The translations under genes were made by a program, and so were the position numbers. The notes under the pieces were generated by a model, which worked only from the letters and a program-made list of their open reading frames with translations, made no database searches and was not told where the DNA came from. This document shows, in pieces, positions 3,142 through 51,501 of a stretch of 64,000 nucleotides of DNA. The DNA is from an uncultured Planctomycetaceae bacterium (GTDB lineage: Bacteria; Planctomycetota; Phycisphaerae; Sedimentisphaerales; UBA12454): NCBI GenBank assembly GCA_964619675.1, contig CAZUEO010000009.1:139-64138 (forward strand), given 5' to 3'. Position 1 is the stretch's first letter. Every line of letters starts with the position of its first letter.

Positions 3142-4380
3142 ATGGCAAAGAAAACCGTGGCCGACATAGACGTAAACGGCAAGAAGGTGCTGATGCGGGT
3201 CGATTTCAACGTGCCATTGGATGAAAACCGCAATATTACCAGCGACGCCAGAATCGTCGCGGCACTGCCGACAATAAAGACAATCCTCGATAAAGGCGGC
3301 TGTGTAATACTGATGAGCCATCTCGGCAGGCCGGATGGCGAAAGAAAACCTGAATTCTCGCTGGCGCCGGTCGCTAAAAAATTGGGCGAACTTCTGAATA
3401 AAAACGTTATCTTCGCAAACGACTGCATCGGACAAGAAGTAAAACAAAAAGCAGCAGCACTCAGGCCCGGAGACATTATGCTGCTCGAAAATGTCAGATT
3501 CCATAAAGAAGAAGAAATAAAAGATAAAAAAGCAGTTGAAGACCCCAAACTGCGAAAAGCAAAAGACGACTTCGCAAGACAACTGGCAGAACTCGGCGAC
3601 GTATATGTCGATGATGCATTCGGAACCACGCACCGCGATAACGCATCAATGTACACCGTGCCGGAGATGATGAAAGGGAAAGATAAAGTCATCGGATTCC
3701 TCGTCGAAAAAGAACTCAAATTTTTAGGCGACGCCCTGAACAATCCGAAAAAGCCGTTTGTTGCCATATTAGGCGGAGCAAAAATATCCGATAAACTGAA
3801 AGTCATCGAAAACCTTATGAAAAAAGTGGACTGTATCCTCATTGGCGGAGCTATGGCCTATACCTTCTTTAAAGCTCAGGGATATACAGTCGGGGACAGC
3901 CTGTGCGAAAATGACTTCATCGATAAGGCAAAAGAACTTATGGCCTTAGCACAAAAAGGCGGATGCGAATTAGTGCTGCCGCTCGATAACGTCATCGTGC
4001 AGAAAATTGAGGCCAACGCAGCAAGTCAAATATCAGATGATAATATCCCTGCCGGCTGGCATGGAGTCGATATAGGGCCTGAAACGATGACACTATTCGT
4101 TAAAAAGCTCGAAGGGGCCAAAACAGTCGTATGGAACGGACCAATGGGCATATTTGAGATGCCGCCATTCGATGCAGGCACAAAAGCAGTGGCCCAGGCA
4201 GTGGCAAAAGCTACCGGTGCGGGCGCGGTAAGCGTTATCGGAGGCGGCGACAGCGTAAGCGCCATTAAAAAGCTGGGCCTTTCAAAACGAGTCAGCCATA
4301 TATCAACAGGCGGTGGAGCAAGCCTTGAGTTTATGGAAGGCAGAAAATTCAAGTGCCTGGAAATACTTGATGAAAAATAG
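3142..4380 (+). CDS. pgk: phosphoglycerate kinase
   Basis: RVDFNVP N-terminal motif, GGAKISDK, VIGGGDS, STGGGASLEF. Full length, 412 aa. Confidence 0.95.
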   Translation: MAKKTVADIDVNGKKVLMRVDFNVPLDENRNITSDARIVAALPTIKTILDKGGCVILMSHLGRPDGERKPEFSLAPVAKKLGELLNKNVIFANDCIGQEVKQKAAALRPGDIMLLENVRFHKEEEIKDKKAVEDPKLRKAKDDFARQLAELGDVYVDDAFGTTHRDNASMYTVPEMMKGKDKVIGFLVEKELKFLGDALNNPKKPFVAILGGAKISDKLKVIENLMKKVDCILIGGAMAYTFFKAQGYTVGDSLCENDFIDKAKELMALAQKGGCELVLPLDNVIVQKIEANAASQISDDNIPAGWHGVDIGPETMTLFVKKLEGAKTVVWNGPMGIFEMPPFDAGTKAVAQAVAKATGAGAVSVIGGGDSVSAIKKLGLSKRVSHISTGGGASLEFMEGRKFKCLEILDEK

Positions 4381-46243: not shown

Positions 46244-46255
46244 ATGGAGTATAAA

Positions 46256-47140
46256 ATGGCAGCCAAAATTATCGACGGCAAACAAATCGCAGCGGATATA
46301 CGAGCCGAACTAAAGGCTGAAGTTGAAAAACTAAAGGCAAAAGGCATTACGCCCGGGCTTGGCGTTATCCTCGTCGGCGCAAATGCCGCCAGTATCTCTT
46401 ATGTAACCGCAAAGGAAAAGGCCTGCGGCGAAGTCGGGATTTATTCAGATGATAACCGCCTGCCTGCCGAGACGAGCGAGTCGGACTTGCTTGCCCTCGT
46501 CAATAAAATGAACAAAGATGCCAAAATCAACGGCATTTTAGTTCAGCTGCCCCTGCCAAAACACATCGACGAGCAGAAAGTCCTGCTTGCAATCGACCCT
46601 GCGAAGGACGTTGACGGCTTTCATCCGGTAAGCGTCGGCAAAATGGTCGTCGGGCAAAAGGCATTTTTGCCCTGCACGCCAAATGGCGCTATCCAGTTGT
46701 TACTTCGCAGCGGCGTAAAACTCGAAGGCGCTGAGGTCGTAATCGTCGGCAGAAGCAATATCGTCGGCAAACCGCTTGCAAATATGCTTATTCAAAAGTC
46801 CCCTACCGGCAATGCTACGGTTACAATCTGCCATACGAGGACAAAGGATGTAGCTGCTCATACAAGGAGGGCTGATATAGTCATTGCCGCGGCGGGCAAA
46901 GTGAATGCCATAACGGCTGATATGATAAAAGATGGTGCCGTTGTTATCGATGTCGGCATAAACAGAATTGAGGATTCTACAAAAAAGAGCGGATTCAGGC
47001 TCGTAGGCGATGTGGATTTTGAAAATGTCAGTAAAAAAGCAAGCTTAATAACACCCGTGCCCGGCGGAGTCGGGCCGATGACAATTACAATGCTGCTCTA
47101 TAACACCGTTGAAAGTGCAAAAATGGCGTCGGGCGTTTAA
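46256..47140 (+). CDS. folD: bifunctional methylene-THF dehydrogenase / methenyl-THF cyclohydrolase
   Basis: MAAKIIDGK start is typical of FolD, with GGAG 7 nt upstream; ATG 46244 is an alternative. [24 protein letters not shown]. Confidence 0.93.
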
Positions 47141-47164
47141 TTTAGGCAGATTGCCACTATTTTA

Positions 47165-47193
47165 TTGACATAACTTATTTTGTTTTTTATACT
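47165..47193 (+). promoter_or_regulatory. near-consensus promoter of the MNT/HEPN cassette
   Basis: TTGACA (47165-47170), 17-nt spacer, TATACT (47188-47193). The ATG at 47200 lies 6 nt after the -10 element. Confidence 0.5.
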
Positions 47194-47199
47194 TAGGGT

Positions 47200-47478
47200 A
47201 TGTATTCGTCAAATCTAAAACAAATAGTAAAGTCCTGTGCCGAGCAATACGGGGTGAAAAGTGTCTGGCTGTTCGGCTCCGCAGTAGAGGATGAACAGCA
47301 TGCAAACGATATAGACCTTGCGGTTGAAGGCCTGGAGCCTGAAAAATTTTTTGATTTCTACGGCAGATTGTTTTTTGAGCTGCCGAAGATGGTTGACCTC
47401 GTTGACCTTTCACAAAATCCTCCGATAACATCCATAGTGCGACAGAAGGGAATCCGCATTTATGAGCGCAGAAGCTGA
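47200..47478 (+). CDS. MNT-type nucleotidyltransferase (antitoxin-like, MntA family)
   Basis: 92 aa with the minimal NTase motif LFGSAVEDEQHANDIDLAV. Confidence 0.8.
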   Translation: MYSSNLKQIVKSCAEQYGVKSVWLFGSAVEDEQHANDIDLAVEGLEPEKFFDFYGRLFFELPKMVDLVDLSQNPPITSIVRQKGIRIYERRS

Positions 47479-47872
47479 TTATATTTCCGCAGAACGCGAA
47501 AACATTTTGCGCACAGTAAAAATGACGGAAGATTTATTGTCGAAAAAAGACATCTCCGAATATGAAGTTATCGCATTGGGAAAATTACTGCAGGATATTT
47601 ATACAGGCATCGAACGAATATTTCGCACTCAACTTGAATCAATGAATATTAAAACCGACAAAACTCAAAGCTGGCACAAAGAGGCGCTTTTAGCAGCTAA
47701 AAAGCATAGCTTGGTATCAGAGGTTCAATTTAAGTGCTTCCGTGATTTGCTTTTGTTCAGGCATATGGAAATTCACGGATACGGTTATATGCTTGATAAG
47801 CAGCGGCTTTTAGAGCTTGCCAGGCCTGTGCCTGCTGTTTGCAGGGAATTTCTGGAGCATTTAAAACTGTAA
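47462..47872 (+). CDS. HEPN-domain protein (HepT-like toxin)
   Basis: 136 aa with the Rx4H motif in LLLFRHMEIHGYG. 17-nt overlap with the upstream NTase gene. Confidence 0.7.
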   Translation: MSAEADYISAERENILRTVKMTEDLLSKKDISEYEVIALGKLLQDIYTGIERIFRTQLESMNIKTDKTQSWHKEALLAAKKHSLVSEVQFKCFRDLLLFRHMEIHGYGYMLDKQRLLELARPVPAVCREFLEHLKL

Positions 47873-47876
47873 GAAT

Positions 47877-47963
47877 TGCGGCGTCGGGCCAATGACTATT
47901 ACTACGTTATTGTACAACACGGTCGAGAGCGCAAAAACCGCCGTCACAGAGCCGCGACAGTAA
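47877..47963 (+). pseudogene. detached, divergent copy of the folD 3' end
   Basis: Encodes [27 protein letters not shown], against the intact folD tail [24 protein letters not shown]. About 43 of 57 aligned nt are identical, with differences mainly at third codon positions. Confidence 0.75.
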
Positions 47964-47972
47964 TGGAGCGGT
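47946..47972. repeat. 27-bp inverted repeat, left copy
   Basis: ACAGAGCCGCGACAGTAATGGAGCGGT. The exact reverse complement is at 49325-49351. Confidence 0.95.
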
Positions 47973-48009
47973 AATTAAAACGTCATAAATAAATTATCTT
48001 TATTTACAT

Positions 48010-48510
48010 TCAAGGTTCTGTTTTGCCTAATGCCATAATTTTGCCCTGACCTGTTTTGACATATTCAATTGCGGAATGGAGTCTTTCTTTTGTCCATATA
48101 TATTTTGTACTTCCGTGTCTTGTCCAATATTTATCAGCCGGAATATTGCCTGTTTTTTTGATTGCATTTGTGGCGTATCTTTTAAAATCAGACATCATTT
48201 TTTCTGGTTCTTCCTGCCCACTGACAACAATATGGATATGATTGCTTCTGACGTGTGCAGAATGAGCATGCCAGCCGCGAAATTTGCACACATCCAAAAT
48301 CGCCTGCAATACTATCTCTCTGCACAACGCATCTAATTTAATTGATGGATTCTTTAAATTACTTTCCTCTTTTATATTCAGCCCGGGATTATTAGGCAGA
48401 AATTTTTCACCAAAGCGATTATGTTTTTTATCCACACTAGCACGTTCATCGCCGTGCAGCCACGTTCCGTATGTTGTAAAAGTTATCAGATATGCAAGCG
48501 GATATTCCAT
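48010..48510 (-). CDS. IS200/RAYT-like HUH (Y1) transposase-family protein
   Basis: YLITFTTYGTWLHGDERASVD N-terminus, HUH motif SNHIHIVV, C-terminal Tyr region HSAIEYVKTGQG. Confidence 0.7.
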   Translation of the reverse strand: MEYPLAYLITFTTYGTWLHGDERASVDKKHNRFGEKFLPNNPGLNIKEESNLKNPSIKLDALCREIVLQAILDVCKFRGWHAHSAHVRSNHIHIVVSGQEEPEKMMSDFKRYATNAIKKTGNIPADKYWTRHGSTKYIWTKERLHSAIEYVKTGQGKIMALGKTEP

Positions 48511-48550
48511 CTCAAATCCTTACCACAGACCCGCGTGGGCTAAAGCCTCA

Positions 48551-49219
48551 TCACTTATCTTGATTCGTTACCCACCTTTTTCTCCATTCTTTATACCACC
48601 GTTTTGATTTAATACCTGATCTAAATTTCCATTTTTTTAAACGTGTTAAAAGTCCTTTATTCAAAAGCTCATCTAACGCCTCATTCTCAAAATAATAAGA
48701 CCCTTGGAGTAATTTAATCTTACAGGACTCTATTAAAAGATCGTTGAGCATCGAAATCATTTGCTTGGCGTCTTTGTTTTTTATTCTCGTAGGCACAGAA
48801 ATTCGGCTATTGACATCTATTTTACCTTTGTCTCTATCTAATCCCACATATATTGCTCTCTGTTTTTTTAATTCAAGTTGCTTTTTCTCAACGAACTCAA
48901 CAAACTTTGGTGAATAGTCAGAAGCCATCCCCCATCCAAAAAAAGCTTTATGTTTTTCATGATGGAGGTATAAAAGTTTTAACCATTCTTGTTCAAAATC
49001 TTCATCTGGCCAATTATTGTTTGTATCCGATGACCAATAATAATGTTCAACCCAATATGATTTAGCAAGTTCTTCCATCGCAAGTACTGATAGATGGAAT
49101 GAAGAAGGAAAGGACTTATTCTTATATAAGAGGATTGAATCAAAATGAAGCCTTAACCCATTCTTAAATGACTCTGTTGCAATTCTTTTAAACTTATATT
49201 TAGAAAGATTTTTTCTCAT
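48551..49219 (-). CDS. AbiV-like (HEPN-type) abortive-infection protein
   Basis: FKNGLRLHFDSILLYKNKSFPSSFHLSVLAMEELAKSYWV fits the AbiV N-terminal helix pattern (N..rL..D...L......A..L..la.EE..K). The gene is AT-rich. Confidence 0.55.
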   Translation of the reverse strand: MRKNLSKYKFKRIATESFKNGLRLHFDSILLYKNKSFPSSFHLSVLAMEELAKSYWVEHYYWSSDTNNNWPDEDFEQEWLKLLYLHHEKHKAFFGWGMASDYSPKFVEFVEKKQLELKKQRAIYVGLDRDKGKIDVNSRISVPTRIKNKDAKQMISMLNDLLIESCKIKLLQGSYYFENEALDELLNKGLLTRLKKWKFRSGIKSKRWYKEWRKRWVTNQDK

Positions 49220-49236
49220 ATATTTTAATTGAAAAC

Positions 49237-49265
49237 ATTATCCTCTCAATTTTCGCCGAAGGCAA
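49237..49265 (-). promoter_or_regulatory. candidate promoter for the abiV-like/Y1 transposase-like pair
   Basis: On the minus strand: TTGCCT (49265-49260), 17-nt spacer, GATAAT (49242-49237). It lies inside the inverted-repeat-bounded segment. Confidence 0.4.
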
Positions 49266-49324
49266 GCCTAAATAAACGCCCTGTGAGCCCCCAATGTAAA
49301 TGAGGGGTAATTTATGTTATTTTG

Positions 49325-49351
49325 ACCGCTCCATTACTGTCGCGGCTCTGT
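49325..49351. repeat. 27-bp inverted repeat, right copy
   Basis: ACCGCTCCATTACTGTCGCGGCTCTGT, the exact reverse complement of 47946-47972. Confidence 0.95.
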
Positions 49352-49509
49352 TTGTTCAAAATTTAATTTCGCATAATCTCTGTAAAGTTCTTTGGCGGCC
49401 TCGTCATAAGCCTTTGCGACCAACCAAAACCTCTGGCATTTACAACACAGGTCGGTATAATAATGCGGCTGTTTTTAAAATAAGGCCATATACGAATAGG
49501 GAGCTCAAA

Positions 49510-51501
49510 ATGAGCAGTGAACACGTTCCGCTTGCGAAGAAACAAATCGAACAGCTTGAAAAGCAAAACTGCCATTGCGGCAGCTGGAAGGATGTTCTTG
49601 TCAGCCCGGATTTTAAGCCTGAAACAATCAAAAATACGACATTTTCAGGTAAAATCCGGCTGGGCAAATTCGATAAACAAACTGCCTTTTACGGCGGCGT
49701 CAGCAAGCCGGCAGGCATTTACAACGCATATCTTCACAACTGCACCGTCGGTAATAACGTTTATATTTCCAATGTATCAAATCACATAGCAAATTACGTT
49801 ATAGAAGATGACTGCATAATTGACCATATCGACCTGCTCGCGGTTGAAGGCGAGACGACGTTCGGCAACGGGACAAAAGCGGTAGTCATAAACGAAGGCG
49901 GCGGCAGAGAGGTAACGATATTTGACGGCCTTACGGCTCAGATTGCATATATTATAGCGCTGCACAGGCACAGAACAAAGGTTCGCGAAAGAATCGAAAA
50001 GCTGACAGCACAATACGCTGAAAGCGTCAAATCCGACACAGGCGTAATAGGCAAAGGCGCCCATCTTTCAAATTGCGGCACAATCAAGAACGTAAAAATC
50101 GGCCCTGCGGCAATTATCGGGAATGTAAGACGTCTTGAAAACGGCACTATAAAAAGCTGTGCTGAAGACCGGACTGAAGTCGGTGCAGGCGTAGTCGCAA
50201 AGGATTTCATCATCGCGGAAGGCGTAAAAATCAGCGAAAGCTCGATTATCTCGGACTGCTTTATCGGCCAGGCAACAAAAATGACCAAGCAGTTCTCTGC
50301 GGAAAATTCGGTCTGTTTTGCCAACTGCGGTTTTCATCATGGCGAGATATGCTCGATTTTCGCAGGCCCCTATACGGTCAGCCATCACAAGTCCACTCTG
50401 CTCATCGCGGGACTGTTCAGTTTCTTTAACGCAGGCAGCGGAACAAACGAGAGCAACCATATGTACAAGGTCGGCAGCGTTCATCAGGGCATATTCGAGC
50501 GCGGCTGTAAAATGACGAGCGATGGTTATGTTATGTATCCTGTGTGGATTGGCGCGTTTTCGGTTATACTGGGCAGGCATTATGCGCATCCGCAGACGGC
50601 TGATATACCATTTTCGTATCTCTTTGAAGAAAATGATAAAACTTTCGTCGTGCCCGGCATAAATCTGCGAACCGTAGGAATAGTCCGTGATGGTGAAAAA
50701 TGGCCTAAACGCGACGAAAGAAAAGCACCAAATAAAACCGATTTGATTATCTTCGATGTCCTAAGTCCTTACACCGTCCAGAAGATTATAAAAGGACTCG
50801 ACCTGCTGCTCAACCTACAGCCTGCACAAACTTCTGCGTCAAACATAGTCGTCTGCAATAACCTGCATTTCAGGACCTCGGCGCTTCAGAAAGGCATAGA
50901 ATATTACTCGATTGCAATTAATAAATTCCTCGGTGACTGTCTGATAGAAAAACTGCAAAACTCACCGCTAAAATCGGCTGCGGACCTTAAAAAACTTATG
51001 GAATCTGCAGATACAAACGGTACGGAAAAATGGCTTGACCTTGCAGGCCTGCTGGCGCCGGAACTGCGCGTGAATCAACTGCTCGACGATATCGAAAATG
51101 GGAAATTAGATACGCTCGAATCCATTGCCGACAGGTTCAAACGCCTTTATGAAAATTACAGCACATTCAAATGGAACTGGGCAATTAAAAAAATCCGCAA
51201 CATTATGAAAAATCAGCAGCATTCATCCGAAACTGAAAAAGTAATACAGATTATCAACGACTGGGCAAAGGCCTGTGAAAAATTGACCTTGCTAATCATA
51301 GACGATGCGGGCAAGGAATTTTCAGCCGAGCCGAGGCTCAGCTACGGCATCGACGGCGATGAAAAAACAAGGGACGCCGACTTCGATGCGGTAAGAGGTA
51401 CTCTCGAAGGCAACAACTTAGTCCGAAAACTCAAACAACGAATCGAAACAACAAAGAAAACCGCAGAAGAAATGATAAATAAAGTCAAATCGCTTCGATA
51501 G
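49510..51501 (+). CDS. left-handed beta-helix (hexapeptide-repeat) protein, DUF4954-like
   Basis: AGGGAG SD before ATG 49510. N-terminus LAKKQIEQLEKQNCHCGSWKDVLV, repeated hexapeptide-like turns (IGKGAHLSNCGTIKNVKIGPAAIIGNV...), and a helical C-terminal domain. Confidence 0.5.
   Translation: MSSEHVPLAKKQIEQLEKQNCHCGSWKDVLVSPDFKPETIKNTTFSGKIRLGKFDKQTAFYGGVSKPAGIYNAYLHNCTVGNNVYISNVSNHIANYVIEDDCIIDHIDLLAVEGETTFGNGTKAVVINEGGGREVTIFDGLTAQIAYIIALHRHRTKVRERIEKLTAQYAESVKSDTGVIGKGAHLSNCGTIKNVKIGPAAIIGNVRRLENGTIKSCAEDRTEVGAGVVAKDFIIAEGVKISESSIISDCFIGQATKMTKQFSAENSVCFANCGFHHGEICSIFAGPYTVSHHKSTLLIAGLFSFFNAGSGTNESNHMYKVGSVHQGIFERGCKMTSDGYVMYPVWIGAFSVILGRHYAHPQTADIPFSYLFEENDKTFVVPGINLRTVGIVRDGEKWPKRDERKAPNKTDLIIFDVLSPYTVQKIIKGLDLLLNLQPAQTSASNIVVCNNLHFRTSALQKGIEYYSIAINKFLGDCLIEKLQNSPLKSAADLKKLMESADTNGTEKWLDLAGLLAPELRVNQLLDDIENGKLDTLESIADRFKRLYENYSTFKWNWAIKKIRNIMKNQQHSSETEKVIQIINDWAKACEKLTLLIIDDAGKEFSAEPRLSYGIDGDEKTRDADFDAVRGTLEGNNLVRKLKQRIETTKKTAEEMINKVKSLR

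Follow-up and report, generated by a model that had tools for sequence, protein, structure and literature searches.

We analyzed a locus at positions 47946 to 49351 of a 64,000-nt stretch of DNA (the window) from an uncultured Planctomycetaceae bacterium (GenBank assembly GCA_964619675.1, contig CAZUEO010000009.1). Here perfect 27-bp inverted repeats enclose two minus-strand genes, one for a 166-aa Y1 protein and the other for a 222-aa AbiV-like protein. We found that the locus is probably (probability about 0.8) a REPtron of the class 3 TnpA-Y1 type into which AbiV was inserted in this strain, and that the "perfect inverted repeats" are its outermost repetitive extragenic palindromic (REP) sequences. 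In a REPtron, a single chromosomal gene for a putative HUH/Y1 single-stranded DNA (ssDNA) endonuclease lies between copies of the REP hairpin that belongs to it. Both repeat arms would then be the outermost 5′ and 3′ members of a dispersed and strongly constrained REP population. As a REPtron, the locus adds a member to a Y1/REP family that has been published but little studied, and a known defense gene lies beside it; the kind of element is known and the gene association is incidental. The locus is neither a new defense system nor a composite transposon, and it is not a switch that inverts.

The original prediction, made from the sequence alone, had described the segment as a mobile or invertible two-gene cassette. 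Both copies of the repeat were confirmed, and its gene coordinates and the 40-nt gap between the co-oriented genes were correct (Table 1). The promoter that it proposed was found again upstream of AbiV homologs in unrelated contexts, and the segment is indeed more AT-rich than its surroundings (GC content 33–40% within, 41–51% in the flanks). It was right that two genes and a promoter lie between the arms, but it missed two further REP-like copies there. Its suggestion that the arms are flanking REPs of the RAYT type was also correct, and they match the REPs of class 3. However, no evidence was found for a cassette that moves or inverts; the REPs are dispersed and the two genes are unlinked elsewhere.

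The Y1 protein

The 166-aa protein passed the Pfam model Y1_Tnp (PF01797) marginally (24.5 bits, cut-off 23), and it scored below the cut-offs of the NCBIfam models NF047646 REP_Tyr_transpos (RAYT; 21 bits, cut-off 80) and NF033573 (IS200/IS605; 19.5 bits, cut-off 55). Residue conservation was estimated from an alignment of 27 homologs. In the HUH motif N90-H91-I92-H93, H91 was invariant and H93 was conserved in at least 90% of the sequences. W129 of the W129-T130 motif and Y150, V151 and Q155 of the Y150-V151-K-T-G-Q155 motif were invariant, and so were H86, R88, H132-G-S-T135 and G156. A sequence-profile search of the PDB with Y1 returned nothing meaningful, and matches were obtained by fold comparison alone. 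The AlphaFold2 model (predicted local distance difference test score 80.3, predicted template modeling score 0.76) had as its top Foldseek match 4er8, the E. coli RAYT bound to a REP hairpin, followed by the TnpA proteins of IS200, ISDra2 and IS608; the matches 4er8, 2f4f, 2xma and 2vih all had a probability of 1.00 and a template modeling score of about 0.5. The Pfam match, the motifs and the fold thus bear out the earlier description of an IS200/RAYT-like protein.

Quentin et al. (2018, BMC Genomics 19:475; PMC6006769) defined class 3 TnpA-Y1 as a rare class whose hosts are mainly Planctomycetes, Acidobacteria and Proteobacteria, with the motifs NHVH, W[TA] and YV..EQ (Y----Q) and an extended conserved N-terminus. 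They reported that class 3 genes are bracketed by atypical hairpins with a CnGA foot, present in about 600 copies in Solibacter usitatus, and likened the class to both insertion sequence (IS) elements and REPtrons. All of the listed sequence features were found in the Y1/REP locus of the window: NH(I/V)H, W-T, Y-x4-Q, the extended N-terminus, and flanking atypical hairpins with a CnGA foot whose sequence is nearly identical to the REPs of Solibacter usitatus and Legionella. The Planctomycetes/Acidobacteria taxonomy agrees as well. The window differs in that the 5′ REPs have been moved by about 0.74 kb by the AbiV module, an inner REP has been lost, and the REP at the 3′ end of the gene has decayed. 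Judged by these features, the 166-aa protein belongs to class 3 TnpA-Y1, within the RAYT/IS200 superfamily of Y1/HUH enzymes.

We found 1,562 homologs of Y1, mostly in Planctomycetota (Phycisphaerae, Sedimentisphaerales), and none in the plasmid and phage collections. Class 3, for which the 2018 study had 24 sequences, is thereby extended to more than 1,500 homologs. Within the window Y1 is present in a single copy.

Canonical RAYT/TnpA-REP proteins (class 2; 4er8) share with the window the HUH/Y1 fold, the single gene and the inverted REP brackets, and their bacterial interspersed mosaic elements (BIMEs) and REP doublets forming hairpins (REPINs) share with it the REP doublets, tandem arrays and dispersed copies. 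However, the window Y1 lacks the YxxxNP motif, and the window REP has a CAGA foot in place of GTAG/GT[AG]G; its short stem contains tandem G·A and is weak, and its sequence is conserved across phyla and not species-specific. The likeness to IS200/IS605 TnpA (class 1; IS608, ISDra2) lies in the fold, a tyrosine motif of the Y...Q type and the putative recognition of subterminal hairpins. Unlike these proteins, the window Y1 falls below the NCBIfam cut-off, is not accompanied by tnpB, and belongs to no multi-copy IS in the window.

With regard to activity, we infer that the enzyme would bind folded single-stranded REPs, cutting them beside the CnGA foot and joining them again, by which the REPs may be maintained or disseminated. 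The model for this activity is E. coli TnpA-REP (PMC3333891, PMC8266576).

The REP sequences and their dispersal

Table S1 of PMC6006769 gives class 3 REPs of Solibacter (CAGAGCCGCGACCGTTAGGGAGCG) and Legionella (CCGAGCCGCGACCGTAAGGGAGCGGA), drawn as (((((..((....))..))))). The window 27-mer, CAGAGCCGCGACAGTAATGGAGCGGT, is the same element and has the same predicted fold. Only two matches to it were found in the window with up to three mismatches, and none in 100 shuffles; the two arms continue inward to 36 nt with a complementarity of 89%. A scan of the region 47100-49600 against Rfam (E ≤ 1) yielded two chance-level matches only, and therefore the REP does not correspond to any RNA family curated there.

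We then scanned genomes with a degenerate consensus, CAGAGCCGCGA-N8-RAGCGGT. It matched at least 120 loci in Planctomycetota and Acidobacteriota, on several contigs per genome, and in taxa including Phycisphaerae, Planctomycetaceae, Pirellulales, Thermoguttaceae, Bryobacterales and Solibacteraceae. Among the 120 loci listed, a fragment of Y1 was present within 8 kb of only one, and AbiV was near none. The exact 26-mer of the window occurred in at least 120 metagenome contigs with GC contents of 39–68%, and among the 120 listed Y1 was present in one and AbiV in none. The 27-mer is therefore not a mark of this gene pair; it is a common dispersed REP with no preference for the two genes, an outcome that the original prediction itself had named as a refutation. 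Perfect inverted repeats around genes may thus be REPs and not transposon ends.

The conservation of the REP unit ends at about 30 nt. Of 50 distinct variants of the unconstrained N8 segment, 90% could form the inner stem by pairing position 1 with 8 and position 2 with 7, compared with about 50% (maximum 68%) for shuffles, and the pairs were CG, GC, AT and TA among others, around a GTNA loop. The outer stem also covaried, from CCGC/GCGG to CCCC/GGGG. The REP hairpin, as read from these sequences, is supported by covariation. The two arms are perfectly identical because both carry the REP master sequence, and their identity is not a sign of recent duplication or of functional pairing. As the class 3 REP consensus is cross-phylum and backed by covariation, it would be a good substrate for a first biochemical test of class 3 enzymes.

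REPs are usually species-specific. Here the consensus, and even the exact 26-mer, was common to the phyla Planctomycetota and Acidobacteriota, over GC contents of 39–70%. This sharing suggests a very strong constraint by Y1, horizontal spread of REPtrons, or both. The placement of REPs relative to open reading frames (ORFs) was also considered, and 87 of 137 REPs at the genome loci lay within stop-free stretches; this measure was rejected as uninformative because the genomes have about 62% GC and long spurious ORFs.

The REPs of the window have counterparts in its relatives. The left arm has the same position relative to Y1 in two related contigs, L218 and L262. The decayed REP CAGAACCTTGAATGTAAATAAAGATAAT is homologous to an intact REP, CAGAGCCCCGAATGTAAATGAGGGGTAAT, at the 3′ end of Y1 in both; together with the left arm it once made up a REP doublet on the 3′ side. 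On the 5′ side, the right arm with its inner flank is 96% identical to positions 2688-2744 of L002, a contig from the lineage with the closest Y1 (95% identity). The variant GTGAGCCCCCAATGTAAATGAGGGGTAAT and the right arm form an inverted pair of the REPIN/BIME type (49283-49311 on the plus strand and 49322-49350 on the minus strand, spacer 10 nt), and this 5′ doublet is also present in L002 at 2688-2749. Inverted REP doublets occur elsewhere in L034, L038, L072, L083, L086 and L137, and at the 3′ ends of Y1 in L218 and L262.

Two arrays were also observed. In L002, Y1 is immediately followed downstream by four REP units repeated in tandem every 36 nt (3304-3440), and the three distal units have the foot ACGTCC instead of CAGAGC. 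In L117, five same-strand REPs are spaced by 103–139 nt (2101-2625); this array is irregular and not CRISPR-like.

The AbiV module and its linkage to Y1

The 222-aa protein matched Pfam HEPN_AbiV with 78.7 bits (cut-off 27.1) and TIGR04498 with 58.3 bits (cut-off 27), in agreement with the AbiV-like assignment of the original prediction; a partial match to the PADLOC AbiV model was also obtained (E = 1e-6). By its sequence it is clearly an AbiV-family HEPN protein, and 252 homologs were found across phyla. The invariant residues of its clade are R23-L-H25, K53-x5-H59 and H86/K89, and the canonical R-x4-6-H was not recognized.

Comparison of the window with contigs carrying AbiV showed that nucleotide similarity was limited to a segment from about 48529/48555 to 49266/49276. 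In contexts free of both REPs and Y1, the module had a nucleotide identity of 94.5% (L014/15), 88% (L258-260) and 83% (L016/17). Its TTGCCT-17-GATAAT promoter is conserved upstream of AbiV in L014, L258 and L016, and a tail of about 40 nt after the stop codon is conserved in L258 (1942-1985) and L016 (10649-10690), both without Y1. AbiV is therefore a self-contained module of about 0.75 kb, which spans 48511-49276 and includes both this promoter and the conserved 3′ tail. In this AbiV clade, the tail could serve as an RNA element, either regulatory or as an antitoxin.

Lactococcus AbiV is a HEPN RNase that forms a type III toxin–antitoxin (TA) system with the RNA abiV2 (Zhu et al. 2024; review PMC13064643). 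It degrades rRNA, and the upstream RNA abiV2 (about 296 nt) holds it in check. The window protein resembles it in the HEPN_AbiV domain, the similar size and the stand-alone module with its own promoter. However, no conserved upstream RNA gene of about 300 nt like abiV2 was evident, about 45–57 nt upstream of the ATG being conserved (47–57 nt in four contexts); the Rx4-6H motif is not obvious, and members of the clade occur in Planctomycetota, Bacteroidota and other groups. By analogy with its family, the window AbiV would act independently, as an abortive-infection toxin with HEPN RNase activity.

Upstream, the module ends about 6 nt short of the REP variant (49283-49311), and its tail reaches the ATG of Y1, where relatives have one or more inner reverse-oriented REPs. 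We infer that the module was inserted in this strain between the 5′ REP doublet and the start codon of Y1, probably by illegitimate recombination, with deletion of the inner REP or REPs. AbiV had been regarded as cargo, and this holds in the weak sense of an insertion into a REP cluster in this strain. The sequence CGCGGGTCTG (about 48521-48533) was first read as half a REP; most of the 40-nt spacer is the AbiV tail according to L258 and L016. The same 10-mer as in this region is present upstream of Y1 in L218 and was not used as evidence.

We next compared linkage in seven Y1 lineages and five AbiV lineages besides the window. The Y1 relatives, with identities of 95, 90, 88, 78, 74, 68 and 60%, had no AbiV nearby, and the AbiV relatives of 92, 85, 82 and 68% identity had neither Y1 nor REPs. 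REPs tightly bracketed Y1 alone in L002-L007, L008-L013, L263-266, L267 and L270. In L002-L007 (Y1 identity 95%) and L008-L013 (78%) they were 521–573 nt apart around Y1, with extra tandem and inverted copies alongside, and REPs were likewise placed around Y1 alone in the relatives of 74, 68 and 60%. Overall, CAGA-foot REPs flank Y1 in the window and in seven lineages. The searches made returned no contig other than the window with a complete unit of both genes between inverted repeats. ORFs of 162–166 aa beside AbiV in L016 and L017 were suspected to be Y1, and tblastn showed that they were not.

Y1 is generally co-oriented with, and close to, its upstream gene, whether this is a Band_7 gene, deoxyhypusine synthase, ribF or a cargo ORF, and therefore its co-orientation with AbiV has no special meaning. 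As no terminator-like site was predicted between the two genes, transcription is likely to continue from AbiV into Y1, which would be incidental. On the minus strand after Y1, the left REP and its flank form a terminator-like hairpin, of a kind whose count is at chance level.

Competing readings and the surrounding genes

Several observations weigh against a REPtron with an incidental insertion. According to PMC6006769, enzyme activity has been shown for none of the class 3 proteins. Within the 64-kb window, REPs are confined to the Y1–AbiV locus. Y1 relatives of 88–95% identity occupy two different neighborhoods, one with folD and the other with dprA, which leaves some room for mobility of the Y1 unit. 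Moreover, some gene is found in the same REP-bounded slot in three of four close relatives, and the term "incidental insertion" may understate a real hot-spot property.

The last point leads to the reading that REP-bounded slots 5′ of class 3 Y1 recurrently acquire or swap accessory or defense ORFs. This could proceed by ssDNA cleavage and joining by Y1 at REP feet or by REP–REP recombination, and AbiV would be one such cassette. The slot between the outer forward REP or REPs and Y1 contains AbiV in the window, nothing in L002, a 222-aa membrane protein in L218, and in L262 a 327-aa protein with a sub-threshold CAP12/Pycsar TIR match (22 bits, cut-off 24.7). L218 (1-2300) and L262 (971-3490) have in common dprA, the REPs, and a TTGACA/TAnAAT promoter with ribosome-binding site (RBS) as far as the ATG of the cargo. 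The cargo ORFs themselves show no relation to each other, and homology returns 19 nt upstream of Y1; from the two sequences, this appears to be ORF swapping behind a conserved expression signal in a REP-bounded slot. In more distant Y1 relatives, BrnT/BrnA pairs or HNH-AP2 genes adjoin Y1, and TA modules, HNH-AP2 and Band_7 genes cluster beside it in other lineages. However, the sample comprises only about four close and four distant contexts, the donor-type contexts of AbiV are without REPs, and the AbiV junctions do not fall cleanly on REP feet, one being about 6 nt from a REP and the other at the RBS of Y1. Accessory genes also gather in many variable intergenic sites without a dedicated mechanism. 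With so few contexts, and with AbiV joined at sites other than REPs, we consider recurrent capture unlikely. If it were true, a domesticated HUH transposase would have an integron-like role, and REPtrons would be new anchors for finding defense and TA genes in genomes of the Planctomycetes–Verrucomicrobia–Chlamydiae group and of acidobacteria. In the literature, we found no paper linking REPtrons or TnpA-REP with abortive-infection or defense cargo.

Another possibility is that 47946-49351 transposes as one IS-like composite by "peel-and-paste" of Y1, with AbiV as a passenger. The description of class 3 as resembling both IS elements and REPtrons, the different neighborhoods of Y1 among close relatives and the AT-richness of the segment are in line with it. 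However, the window contains no second copy, the searches made found the unit on no further contig, the Y1 relatives are without AbiV, and Y1 homologs were not found on plasmids or phages. The AT-richness comes mainly from the AbiV module, which is separately mobile. In addition, the ends of IS200/IS605 elements are same-strand subterminal hairpins, not terminal inverted repeats. This reading is therefore very improbable.

Finally, a functional two-gene defense system, or an on/off switch inverted through the 27-bp repeats, could be supposed from the shared orientation of the genes, their 40-nt spacing, the lack of a predicted terminator in the gap and the perfect repeats, but the absence of any co-occurrence in the seven Y1 and five AbiV lineages largely refutes it as far as sequence comparison goes, the usual co-orientation and closeness of Y1 to whichever gene is upstream and the REP master sequence account for the gene arrangement and for the identical arms, and we give it hardly any credence. 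The co-functioning Abi and HUH pair that had been considered is accordingly without evidence, the genes being never linked elsewhere. As for inversion, the promoter is inside the segment and would turn with it, so that expression would not be switched; Y1 and folD are convergent both in the window and in the 95% relative, and therefore there is no sign of inversion.

For a REPtron with an inserted AbiV module, the surrounding genes (Table 1) provide the context. The original prediction had placed folD and a DUF4954-like gene at the two sides of the segment. On the left, a MNT/HepT pair and a 68-nt folD remnant intervene, and the right arm adjoins an HNH-AP2 remnant. An empty site, with folD directly beside the DUF4954-like gene, was not found in the relatives, and in L002, the nearest of them, other genes follow HNH-AP2. 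Compared with the folD of L002, the functional 3′ end has 86% identity and the remnant 78%, and the remnant is therefore foreign; it is about 77% identical to the functional end. The window locus is a mosaic hot spot.

Table 1. Features of the Y1–AbiV locus and its surroundings; positions refer to the window unless a contig is named.
Feature	Position	Strand	Remarks
Functional folD	46244-47140		Left side of the locus
MNT (Polbeta nucleotidyltransferase)/HepT-like toxin–antitoxin pair	47200-47872	+	Further accessory module of the same hot spot
Foreign folD 3′-end remnant	47878-47945	+	68 nt; frame enters REP: ...SAKTAV/TEPRQ*
Left inverted-repeat arm ACAGAGCCGCGACAGTAATGGAGCGGT	47946-47972	+	REP hairpin; conserved 3′-side reverse-oriented REP of the REPtron
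Left arm hairpin			Foot CAGA; stem GCCGC/GCGGT; tandem G·A; 2-bp inner stem; GTAA loop
Decayed REP CAGAACCTTGAATGTAAATAAAGATAAT	about 47992-48021	-	Overlaps Y1 stop codon
Class 3 TnpA-Y1 gene	48010-48510	-	HUH/Y1, RAYT-like; 166 aa
3′ tail of AbiV module	48511-48550	-	40-nt spacer to Y1 ATG; in place of native inner REP(s)
AbiV-family HEPN protein gene	48551-49219	-	222 aa
Sigma70-like promoter TTGCCT-17-GATAAT of AbiV module	49237-49265	-	Conserved upstream of AbiV homologs
REP variant GTGAGCCCCCAATGTAAATGAGGGGTAAT	49283-49311	+	Compensatory stem; head-to-head doublet with right arm
Right inverted-repeat arm	49325-49351	-	Exact reverse complement of ACAGAGCCGCGACAGTAATGGAGCGGT; outer 5′-side REP of the REPtron
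HNH-AP2 gene 3′-end remnant	49352-49417	-	Last ~22 codons; frame enters REP: ...DYAKLNF/EQTEPRQ*
HNH_3 or HNH_3-AP2 genes	49352-49417; L002 1244-1687; L263 2325-2900; L014 1030-1704; L016 7061-7738
TEPRQ* tails	47946-47969, 49328-49351; L218 2297-2325		REP-encoded

The segment 47141-47945, with the TA pair and the folD 3′ duplicate, resembles an att-like or recombination scar and marks this mosaic hot spot. HNH_3 or HNH_3-AP2 genes, which are homing-endonuclease-like, were observed beside class 3 Y1 in three lineages and beside AbiV homologs in three contigs.

We also observed that a TEPRQ* tail encoded by the REP ends three ORFs or remnants, namely the folD remnant, the HNH-AP2 remnant and an ORF of L218. 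Class 3 Y1 proteins likewise terminate in REP-encoded tails (TEP, TEPSACGG, QSPERK). From these shared tails, gene 3′ ends would thus be sites where REPs insert, or would be supplied by REPs.

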